From positions 270,001 to 302,000 of the forward strand of contig CP064993.1 of the NCBI GenBank assembly GCA_016699955.1: DNA of 32,000 nt. Direction: 5' to 3'. Made by a program: the position numbers and the translations under genes. Positions 29,223 through 29,297 of this stretch are shown here, one piece after another (within the stretch, counting starts at the first letter, position 1; each line of letters begins with the position of its first letter). Below the pieces are notes generated by a model that was not told where the DNA came from, did no database searches, and saw only the letters and a program-made list of their open reading frames with translations. This DNA comes from Candidatus Saccharimonadota bacterium. Lineage in GTDB: Bacteria > Patescibacteriota > Saccharimonadia > Saccharimonadales > UBA4665.

Positions 29223-29297
29223 TGGTGGAGACACGGGGAGTTGAACCCCGATCTGCAAGGTGACTAGCCTGCCATTTTACCGTTAAACTATATCCCC
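29223..29297 (-). tRNA. atypical tRNA-like gene: canonical cloverleaf, Ala-type acceptor (G3:U70, A73, encoded CCA), 8-nt anticodon loop CUAGUCAC
   Basis: GGGGATATAGTTTAACGGTAAAATGGCAGGCTAGTCACCTTGCAGATCGGGGTTCAACTCCCCGTGTCTCCACCA. Acceptor is 7 bp; U8, A14, GG in the D-loop, T-arm CGGGG-TTCAACT-CCCCG. The anticodon stem GCAGG/CUUGC (5 bp, one G-U) leaves an 8-nt loop. A 7-nt-loop fold gives only 3 bp. Confidence 0.6.

Follow-up and report, generated by a model that had tools for sequence, protein, structure and literature searches.

What does a tRNA-shaped gene with an expanded anticodon loop do inside an insertion sequence (IS)? This question is raised by a 32,000-nucleotide (nt) stretch of a Candidatus Saccharimonadota genome (contig CP064993.1, positions 270,001 to 302,000; here, the window), in which an IS1595-family element carries such a gene. 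A first-pass annotation, made from the letters of the window, had described a transposon-borne tRNA with alanine identity elements and an 8-nt anticodon loop, and had proposed that it might be a recoding or mistranslating tRNA, a tRNA mimic used by the element, or a decayed tRNA. We find that the gene is indeed a genuine, conserved tRNA-like gene borne by a mobile element and present in related IS copies. The earlier reading was nonetheless incomplete, as it missed a predicted small RNA (sRNA) gene beside the tRNA-like gene that is complementary to the anticodon arm and co-varies with it. Because the arm is mirrored in this way, we take it to be an RNA-RNA recognition module.

The tRNA-like gene and its relatives

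The tRNA-like gene is 75 nt long and, as read from the window, has the letters GGGGAUAUAGUUUAACGGUAAAAUGGCAGGCUAGUCACCUUGCAGAUCGGGGUUCAACUCCCCGUGUCUCCACCA. The cloverleaf and identity nucleotides annotated at first are all present: the acceptor stem GGGGAUA/UGUCUCC includes G3:U70 and is followed by A73 and an encoded CCA, the T arm is CGGGG-UUCAACU-CCCCG with its G53-C61 pair, and U8, A14, and G18G19 are in place. To these we add G26, the R15-Y48 pair, a D stem of GUUU/AAAU, an anticodon stem of GCAGG/CUUGC that contains one G:U pair, and a 4-nt variable loop (AGAU). The 8-nt loop also stands. ARAGORN called the gene "tRNA-???" with a four-base anticodon (agtc), and the Rfam tRNA model RF00005 (53.3 bits, E = 6e-9, gathering score 29, whole model covered) aligned with a 6-nt insert at the anticodon loop against 5 positions expected. 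No alternative stem register gave a 7-nt loop for this gene; the 5-bp stem is unique. The unconstrained minimum free energy fold of the single sequence differs from the cloverleaf (z = -0.9), as is usual for tRNAs, and we therefore judged the structure on covariation among homologues.

Of the elements of tRNA-Asp, GUC-A-C, G10, and G2:C71 are present in the gene, but the Asp-type loop recognized by the first-pass annotation has one base inserted after U33. The discriminator is A73, unlike the G73 of tRNA-Asp, which is carried by the canonical relatives L091 and L078 (loci other than the window are given by such numbers). The body of the gene is 75% identical to the tRNA-Asp(GUC, G73) of L091 and 74% identical to a tRNA-Ala(GGC). 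These two comparators are canonical tRNAs from metagenome contigs of unknown taxon, and their D and T arms are shared with the window gene.

Homologues were collected by a genome pattern scan whose anchors (5' acceptor, D arm, and CTCCA) forced G3:U70 and A73, and by a metagenome pattern scan that used the D and T arms only. Two further copies, L104 and L126, were reached via homologues of the transposase. Four near relatives (L061, L048, L073, and L082) lie in the same IS context, and all have 8-nt loops. It had been conceivable that homologues would show a normal 7-nt loop, with the window copy a unique indel. This is not so, because the 8-nt loop is kept in these four relatives, with transposases only 38% (L061) and 44% (L073) identical to that of the window in the two cases that can be compared. 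The loop form YU-N-GUC-AY occurs in at least 12 family members.

An alignment of seven sequences (A1: the window, L061, L048, L073, L082, L104, and L126) supports all four stems of the cloverleaf. In it, 93.8% of cells are paired, versus 46 to 62% in slid controls, and eight pairs are changed on both sides, with 0 of 500 shuffles as good. The columns of tertiary nucleotides (U8, A14, G18G19, G53-C61, the T-loop UUCRANY, R15-Y48, and G26) are invariant. So is G3:U70 (7/7), while neighboring pairs vary (the adjacent 4:69 pair is GC, CG, or GU), in agreement with the alanine identity first annotated. G3:U70 is also found in copies recovered without that constraint (L073, L082, L104, and L126), and these copies together with L129X provide unbiased support for alanine identity.

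These results bear directly on the possibility that the gene is a decayed passenger, that is, a tRNA pseudogene whose loop acquired a chance insertion. The window copy of the IS is itself interrupted by another IS, which would suit such decay, but the four stems are kept by compensatory changes, the tertiary nucleotides do not vary, and the expanded loop is common to elements as distant as the transposase identities above imply. The compensatory changes refute the decayed tRNA of the first-pass annotation, and we regard a pseudogene as extremely improbable.

A predicted partner small RNA gene

An exact 14-nt copy of one segment of the tRNA-like gene, running from G26 through the 5' anticodon stem and the loop, begins 61 nt beyond the CCA. 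It lies in direct orientation, 112 nt from the original, and a search of the window with this 14-mer gives 2 matches versus 0.24 expected. The copy is framed on the opposite strand by a -10 box and an intrinsic terminator, and we therefore predict an antisense sRNA of ~45 nt (Table 1). An sRNA transcribed toward the tRNA gene is the simplest reading of the framed copy, whose complement would form the seed. The fold of positions 29146 to 29195 (z = -2.7) leaves this 5' seed free.

The same design recurs in each of the 11 modules (tRNA-like gene plus predicted sRNA gene) of this layout, which we call type A (Saccharibacteria/IS1595). A box of the form TGCTA(T/A)(A/G)(A/C)T sits 2 to 9 nt before a seed of 11 to 17 nt, the seed is complementary to tRNA positions ~25 to 41, and a hairpin and U-tail follow (11/11 for each). 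In all 11, moreover, the seed matches the anticodon arm of its own element (copies are given in Table 2), and apart from the seed copy no direct repeat of at least 11 nt was found in any tRNA-bearing region scanned. L104 and L126 have near-identical flanks, but the arm segment and its copy have been swapped jointly. The terminator of the partner has a compensatory stem change in L082. At the inverted repeat around the -10 box, an A-to-G change in L061 keeps a G:U pair solely on the tRNA strand. The order repeat-leader-terminator-tRNA-sRNA-transposase is common to L061, L073, L104, L126, L096, and L128.

Predicted duplex energies point the same way. The seed/arm duplex of the window is predicted at -31.2 kcal/mol, the best of 28 partners. 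In the full 28-by-28 matrix of cross-duplexes the own partner ranks best in 16 of 26 modules, and the exceptions include arms that have near-identical counterparts elsewhere (window/L061 and L051/L056). Two tRNAs that lack a partner rank 18th and 28th.

We considered whether the repeated 14-mer might instead act at the DNA level, as a recombination or transposase-binding site or as an integration relic kept by gene conversion, with the "sRNA gene" an artifact of consensus matching. Integration classically occurs at tRNA anticodon loops, the copy stands in direct orientation just 112 nt away, and the promoters are predictions only. Both copies, however, lie inside the IS and away from its ends, no tRNA 3' half follows the second copy, and every one of the 11 modules, for all their other sequence differences, has the -10 box on one side of the copy and the terminator on the other. 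In the two other layouts described below, the partner is a permuted reverse complement on the same strand, which fits RNA pairing and not a DNA crossover. A DNA-level role is therefore very unlikely.

Table 1. Coordinates of the tRNA-like gene, its predicted partner, and the insertion sequence that carries them (window numbering).
Feature	Position	Strand	Basis or remark
tRNA-like gene	29223-29297	minus	5' end 29297, 3' end 29223; ARAGORN, Rfam tRNA, cloverleaf covariation
8-nt anticodon loop CUAGUCAC	29260-29267	minus	RNA positions 31-38; read from sequence
tRNA segment G26, 5' anticodon stem, and loop, GGCAGGCUAGUCAC (GGCAGGCTAGTCAC)	29260-29273	minus	predicted sRNA target
Seed of predicted partner sRNA, GUGACUAGCCUGCC (GTGACTAGCCTGCC)	29148-29161	plus	exact complement of tRNA-like positions 25-38
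Extended -10 of partner sRNA, TGCTATACT	29134-29142	plus	5 nt upstream of seed; consensus prediction
Intrinsic terminator of partner sRNA, GCCCACUAUUUGCGUAGUGGGC + UUUUCUAUUA (GCCCACTATTTGCGTAGTGGGC-TTTTC)	29163-29192	plus	terminator scan
Inverted repeat AGTCACTT / AAGTGACT	29127-29153		around -10 box, overlapping seed start
Strong hairpin + U6, intrinsic terminator of leader	29320-29376	minus	ends 22 nt upstream of tRNA-like 5' end; fold z = -5.3
Promoter-like extended -10, TGGTAGAAT	29425-29433	minus	predicted to drive leader-terminator-tRNA transcript
IS1595-family insertion sequence	26350-29706		terminal inverted repeats starting GGCAATTATCCCC
Target-site duplication, left copy, GTCCGTAC (8 bp)	26342-26349		
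Target-site duplication, right copy, GTCCGTAC (8 bp)	29707-29714		identical to left copy
IS1595 transposase, zinc ribbon + DDE	26766-27758	minus	PF12762 4.7e-32, PF12760 1.1e-11
Nested rve-type IS	27820-29104	minus	between sRNA gene and IS1595 transposase promoter; outside module
Small open reading frame	29484-29678		

The seed has no other target in the window at up to two mismatches, and on this ground we rejected a scheme in which the sRNA acts on a conserved 52-aa open reading frame (ORF) or on another window site. Pairing of the tRNA loop with the 5' untranslated region of the transposase was likewise rejected: only the 4-nt palindrome CUAG matches, and loop changes elsewhere do not track it. 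Neither the partner RNAs nor the leader nor the remainder of the IS matched any family in Rfam searches at permissive thresholds.

Upstream of the tRNA-like gene, positions 29320 to 29433 of the minus strand form a mini transcription unit, with TGGTAGAAT, a leader of ~45 nt (AGCAGUUUAAUAAU...AAAUUACGCG), and a terminator hairpin. The unit, including its hairpin, is kept in L048, L082, L104, L126, and L096 whichever tRNA comes next; the extended -10 beside the inverted repeat is kept in L048, L082, L104, L126, and L105. We rejected a T-box-like or attenuator reading of the leader because the same CAGTTTAATAA occurs in L104, whose D arm differs, and the leader thus does not track the cargo tRNA. 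As a whole, the unit could attenuate the tRNA or give rise to a third small RNA.

Cargo, related pairs, and carrier

Within the IS lineage, the slot occupied by the tRNA-like gene holds tRNA-likes of differing descent (Table 2). The transposase of L104 is 94% identical to that of the window, yet its cargo has the anticodon GAU. Across the wider family, Ala-type acceptors bear GUC, AUC, GAU, CAU, or GAC anticodons. Alanyl- and seryl-tRNA synthetases (AlaRS and SerRS) do not read the anticodon. Judged by their sequences, the recognizable acceptors all belong to synthetases that are blind to the anticodon, and among them the anticodon never fits the acceptor. In L115 the slot holds a degenerate tRNA-like.

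Table 2. Anticodon loops, acceptor types, and repeated segments of cargo in the IS1595 lineage.
Copy	Acceptor or scaffold	Anticodon	Anticodon loop	Copied segment
Window group	Ala-type	(N)GUC		
L061			CUAGUCAC, whole arm same as window	
L048			CCUGUCAG	TGGCGGTCCTGTCA
L073	Ala-type	UAUC	CUUAUCAC	GGCAGACTTATCACTTT
L082			CUUGUCAC	GGCGATCTTGTCACTTC
L104	Ala-type	GAU		TGCGACTGATAATC
L126	Ala-type	CAU		TGCGTTTCATAGTC
L129X	Ala-type	AUC		GGCAGGCCATC
L129	class-II, Ser-like, G73	CUU		
L096	not assigned	GGC		CGCGTGATTGGCT
L128	not assigned		6/8-nt loop	CGTAGTGTCGAA
L129Y	not assigned	ACU		AGTAGTCCACT

Some loci depart from the single-module plan. At L129, tandem tRNA-like and sRNA modules (3391-3467 and 3746-3820, minus strand) pair an Ala-type acceptor with AUC and an ACUCCGG acceptor with ACU. 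They lie downstream of an IS1595 copy with a Ser-like class-II CUU tRNA, which makes three modules in 3.9 kb, and the two extra ones are without a transposase. In L105 and L125, the tRNA-like is replaced in its slot upstream of the transposase by a long hairpin RNA (GCCGAGTGATA...TATCACTCGGC) whose apical region varies, and the seed slot of L125 has a copy of 11 nt (GTAACCTTACG) from the leader upstream. The L061 transposase (~7040 to 7060) has one in-frame TAG as well as a short deletion within its DDE region, yet the tRNA-like/sRNA module is intact. We rejected the idea that this TAG is read by the loop "CUA," which is geometrically impossible as an anticodon, and take the TAG as decay. In L082 the transposase is lost and the module is joined straight to the left-end region of the IS.

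This diversity is informative for the proposal of the first-pass annotation, which can be extended to a conditionally used recoding or mistranslating tRNA that inserts alanine at GAC(N) or Asp codons to the benefit of host or element, with the sRNA as its switch. In keeping with it, the 8-nt loop is found in 5/5 Saccharibacteria-type IS copies and the form YU-N-GUC-AY, with any N, in at least eight members of a second layout (type B, below). The alanine identity is conserved, and there are precedents for deliberate mistranslation and for irregular Ser/Ala tRNAs (PMC5389517, PMC7609411). Among near-identical elements, however, the anticodon varies (GUC-type, GAU, CAU), so that no fixed codon would be recoded, several anticodons occur within one locus (L044, L129), and in some copies the IS is decaying. 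No gene that would need a +1 shift at GACU was found in the window: the reading frame of the IS1595 transposase is continuous, and, by frame arithmetic on ORF coordinates, the adjacent fragments of a broken rve-type transposase need -1/+2. Quadruplet recoding at GAC as a fixed role is thus unlikely given the GAU, CAU, GGC, and CUU anticodons of L104, L126, L096, and L129, and we consider the broader recoding proposal improbable.

Phages and mobile elements carry loop-variant tRNAs that evade tRNA-targeting systems. The Asp-type loop with one inserted base could belong to a decoy or resistant tRNA that counters anticodon nucleases or other systems of defense or attack aimed at tRNAs; the loop would escape or soak up a nuclease cutting G/Q34-U35 tRNAs such as tRNA-Asp. 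An alanine acceptor, though, would cause a replacement tRNA-Asp to mistranslate, and neither the co-varying sRNA gene nor the range of anticodons among relatives is explained. We give this idea little credence.

Pairs of this kind are not confined to the IS1595 lineage. The genome scan yielded a broad family in Peregrinibacteria, Peribacteria, Gracilibacteria, a Nitrospirae metagenome-assembled genome, and Hakubella with related Actinomycetota. Its members have Ala-type acceptors (as imposed by the search pattern) and odd anticodon arms, and at least eight have an 8-nt loop of the form YU-N-GUC-AY in which N is A, C, G, or U. Nearly all adjoin a small RNA gene with its own predicted promoter and terminator, in two layouts that we call types B and C. 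In type B (Peregrini-, Peri-, and Gracilibacteria), the partner is upstream on the same strand and contains permuted reverse complements of tRNA positions 26 to 32, 4 to 15, and 34 to 45. In type C (Hakubella), it is downstream on the same strand, with reverse complements of positions 29 to 41 and 9 to 20. By contrast, L055, a canonical tRNA-Ala(UGC) on the same scaffold, is without a partner. An all-against-all BLAST comparison of flanking ORFs found no conserved protein neighbor other than the IS1595 transposase in Saccharibacteria-type copies.

Covariation extends to these layouts as well. In a set of ten type B pairs, pairing across the three helices between the two RNAs reaches 94.2%, versus 33 to 46% when slid, and 12 base pairs, some of them at anticodon positions, are changed on both sides, a result equaled by 0 of 500 shuffles. 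For all type B segments to pair at once looks sterically awkward, and the real complex may therefore use only part of the complementarity. In type C, covariation reaches D-loop position 16 (AATGG/CCATT versus AACGG/CCGTT).

Several further features were noted. In type B, the leader of ~20 nt between the TATAAT box of the tRNA and G1 (L053, 790-813, and L051) contains UGGUGGAG, the complement of the tRNA-like 3' end CUCCACCA plus a few trailer bases, which would compete with the acceptor stem in the precursor. In the Hakubella-type loci L044 (1339-5380), L058, and L047, three modules lie in the gaps of an rmlD-rmlB-rmlC-rmlA operon on the opposite strand; they adjoin an LCP (LytR_cpsA_psr) gene and have anticodon loops with GUC and AUC. 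Lastly, many large phage contigs (20 IMG/VR contigs, e.g., L004 at 6204-6227, L006, L011, and L013) share GGGGTATTAGTTTAATGGTAAAACAAGGTA(A/G)CTAGAAATAG..., which is a tRNA 5' half running into non-tRNA sequence and may represent an intron-containing or split tRNA.

The main rival to the function that we favor is a self-regulation or specificity pair of the transposon, in which sense and antisense RNAs set the level of read-through transcript or of transposition and have no translational role, much like plasmid RNAI/RNAII, CopA/CopT, and IS10 RNA-OUT. The hypervariable arm and seed would then be a lineage-specific "incompatibility" determinant, and the tRNA shape would provide stability, processing by RNases P and Z, and a U-turn loop that allows rapid pairing. 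Closely related IS copies do differ jointly in arm and seed, the module always has the inverted repeat on one side and the transposase promoter on the other, and the slot can hold a plain hairpin RNA (L105 and L125, the latter with a seed that copies the leader). Neither a terminator scan nor folding found a terminator after the tRNA on its strand, so that read-through toward the transposase is possible. On the other hand, a separate promoter for the transposase is predicted just before its ATG, beyond the sRNA gene, which means that the sRNA has no antisense relation to the transposase mRNA. Self-regulation also leaves the strict retention of G3:U70, A73, CCA, and the tertiary nucleotides unexplained, and similar pairs exist without any transposase at the Hakubella and Peregrinibacteria loci. 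We consider it unlikely on balance, but a serious contender.

As to the carrier itself, the first-pass description of the gene as transposon-borne is borne out by inverted repeats, an 8-bp target duplication, and an IS1595-type transposase inside them. The inverted-repeat arms are 33 nt long and 88% complementary and as a pair bracket 26342 to 29714, and the terminal repeat is also present in L048, L096 to L103, L104, and L126. A duplication of 8 bp is the size expected for IS1595-family elements. The reading frame of the transposase is intact and its relatives number more than 7,600; the true start is likely the ATG at 27716, which follows the promoter TTGCTT-17-TATAAT. Look-ups of identical proteins gave no match for the window transposase or for the small ORF at 29484 to 29678. 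Among carriers of this element the closest, L048, is annotated as Saccharibacteria, and a plasmid megablast of positions 28000 to 30500 gave no match. The nested rve-type IS consists of three ORF fragments (28879-29013, 28049-28885, and 27825-28052) with successive offsets of -1/+2, one of them with a below-cutoff rve match, between terminal inverted repeats TTAGCTCATTTAA/TTAGATGAGCTAA; it is missing at the matching position in L104, L073, L061, and L082. The IS also contains a putatively coding 52-aa ORF (26561-26719, plus strand), located downstream of the transposase in the opposite orientation, with a hydrophobic segment (…HIFLCLIGVGLVTIPYYSISPNHYWHA). Its counterpart in L104 (4396-4554) is 77% identical in protein sequence, and it has no Pfam match.

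The remainder of the window is ordinary chromosome, with genes for FtsH, LepA, MurJ, a TilS-like protein, an LCP protein, and an IS110 transposase. The last of these (322-1245, minus strand) is of the IS110/IS116/IS902 family (DEDD + Transposase_20), and fragmentary helix-turn-helix transposase ORFs at 29793 to 30343 add to the IS-rich character of the window. A tRNA-Met gene at 31412 to 31486 has its 3' part (31430-31452) repeated directly at 31541 to 31563 (23 nt, 74%, 111 nt away), which may be an old attachment-site remnant.

What the pair may do

The reading that we favor, at somewhat less than even confidence, is a toxin-antitoxin-like pair in which a mis-decoding or frameshifting tRNA that AlaRS can charge is neutralized by its cognate sRNA. 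Host AlaRS would alanylate the tRNA-like through G3:U70 and A73, ignoring the anticodon. Left unmasked, a tRNA-like with an Asp-type (N)GUC loop would place alanine at GAC/GAU or shift the frame at GACU, and would thereby be a generically harmful decoder. The sRNA would pair with the anticodon arm, loop first and then by stem invasion, leaving the arm masked or unfolded. With the tRNA gene behind a terminator, its expression would be low, whereas the sRNA would have its own promoter. The pair could thus act as a transposon-carried addiction module or kill-switch made of a stable tRNA poison and a short, programmable sRNA antidote.

Several observations speak for a poison-antidote pair. The module outlasts its transposase, which is lost in L082 and broken by TAG in L061, and two extra modules of L129 are without one; modules with private specificities co-occur (L044 and L129); and acceptor type and anticodon disagree, with the canonical tRNA-Ala(UGC) of L055 lacking a partner. 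Engineered anticodon variants of tRNA-Ala mistranslate and slow growth in yeast (PMC10543346), and irregular tRNAs of Ser or Ala identity are known near toxin-antitoxin systems and transposon genes (PMC5389517).

Other points weigh against a poison-antidote pair. An 8-nt loop usually decodes poorly, and toxicity may therefore be low. Co-variation speaks to matching and not to direction or purpose, and a sponge or decoy for the sRNA would give the same pattern. Addiction modules are not obviously needed by chromosomal IS elements. The promoters and transcription starts are consensus predictions, and a simple two-hexamer scan did not call the sRNA promoter of the window, where the -35 is weak. 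The genome scan demanded G3:U70 and A73, so that their universality in L044 to L065 is by construction. In addition, the cargo of L096 (Thr-like), L128, and L129Y has no recognizable anticodon-blind identity, and the hairpin cargo of L105 and L125 means that a tRNA is not strictly needed in the slot.

Comparison with known systems indicates which parts of the pair have precedents. The allo-tRNAs of Acidobacteria (Mukai et al. 2017, PMC5389517) likewise take their identity from anticodon-blind synthetases (Ser, or Ala with G3:U70), bear many non-cognate anticodons, and occur near toxin-antitoxin systems and transposon genes; some irregular tRNAs were inactive or lethal in Escherichia coli and were proposed to be regulatory RNAs (PMC5389517). 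The allo-tRNAs differ in having 8/4 or 9/3 acceptor/T-stem structures, whereas the window gene has a canonical 7/5 structure with a 4-nt variable loop, and a term search of that paper brought up neither a cognate antisense sRNA nor a set position within an IS ("antisense" has 0 occurrences). The window gene has the expanded 8-nt loop and four-base anticodon of a quadruplet-decoding tRNA and, like SufB2, SufD, SufJ, and yeast mitochondrial tRNA-Thr(UAG), one extra base beside a normal anticodon in an otherwise canonical body. Those suppressors differ from the cognate tRNA by point changes and receive the amino acid that belongs to the codon they read. The window gene, in contrast, joins an Asp-type loop to an alanine acceptor, resides in an IS, and is matched by an sRNA, with no frameshift target gene found in the window.

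Transfer-messenger RNA (tmRNA) offers another parallel, as its tRNA-like domain has the GGGG...CUCCACCA acceptor with G3:U70 and A73 and is charged with alanine without an alanine anticodon. The Rfam tmRNA model aligns end to end to several family members, at 30 to 38 bits versus a 47-bit threshold, and in the window the tRNA model is the sole Rfam match, with no tmRNA. Unlike tmRNA, the tRNA-likes have full D and anticodon arms and no mRNA-like region, tag ORF, or pseudoknots. We also rejected a tmRNA in two pieces or in permuted form, the match having E = 0.41 and no coding capacity.

The closest regulatory analogues are type I toxin-antitoxin and antisense systems (hok/sok, Ibs/Sib, IS10 RNA-IN/RNA-OUT, and CopA/CopT). 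They share with the present pairs a small antisense RNA whose gene has a promoter and a terminator of its own, a short seed that recognizes a loop, paralogues with private co-varying specificities, and residence on mobile elements. Their target, however, is a toxin or transposase mRNA, whereas here it is a tRNA-shaped RNA, and in types A to C the complementarity comes from a separate duplicated segment acting in trans and not from gene overlap. Passenger genes are also a feature of some IS1595 groups, such as ISPna2+ and ISNwi1+ of ISfinder, and the window element resembles these in its zinc-ribbon and DDE transposase, inverted repeats, 8-bp duplication, and variable passengers. It differs in the fixed tRNA-like and cognate sRNA inside it, of which there is no description in the literature searched. 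That literature likewise describes neither pairs of a tRNA and an anti-tRNA sRNA nor IS1595 elements with a tRNA as cargo. Eight-nucleotide loops, identity-mismatched tRNAs, antisense sRNAs, and IS passengers are each known; their combination has not been described, as far as we found.

More speculatively, the pairs may constitute a new class of all-RNA toxin-antidote module, in which a tRNA of an anticodon-blind synthetase (AlaRS, sometimes SerRS) with a foreign or expanded anticodon is combined with a programmable antisense sRNA. Such modules would be standard in a large IS1595 lineage and free-standing in the Candidate Phyla Radiation (CPR) and in Hakubella (Actinomycetota). We regard this generalization as possible but doubtful.

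If the pairing is real in cells, the window would hold the first natural tRNA with a dedicated, co-evolving antisense RNA and the first IS lineage with a tRNA-shaped RNA built in, as far as we have found. Natural orthogonal tRNA/anti-tRNA pairs, whose 8-nt loops cover all four N-GUC versions, would be of use in synthetic biology and in studies of quadruplet decoding. The pairs also draw attention to a class of "tRNA-???" or mis-typed calls in CPR genomes, which inferences of genetic codes or tRNA sets should not treat as ordinary decoders. If the poison-antidote reading is true, mobile elements can deploy and safely carry mischarging or frameshifting tRNAs, and would have in them a compact (~200 bp), host-independent means of poisoning translation.

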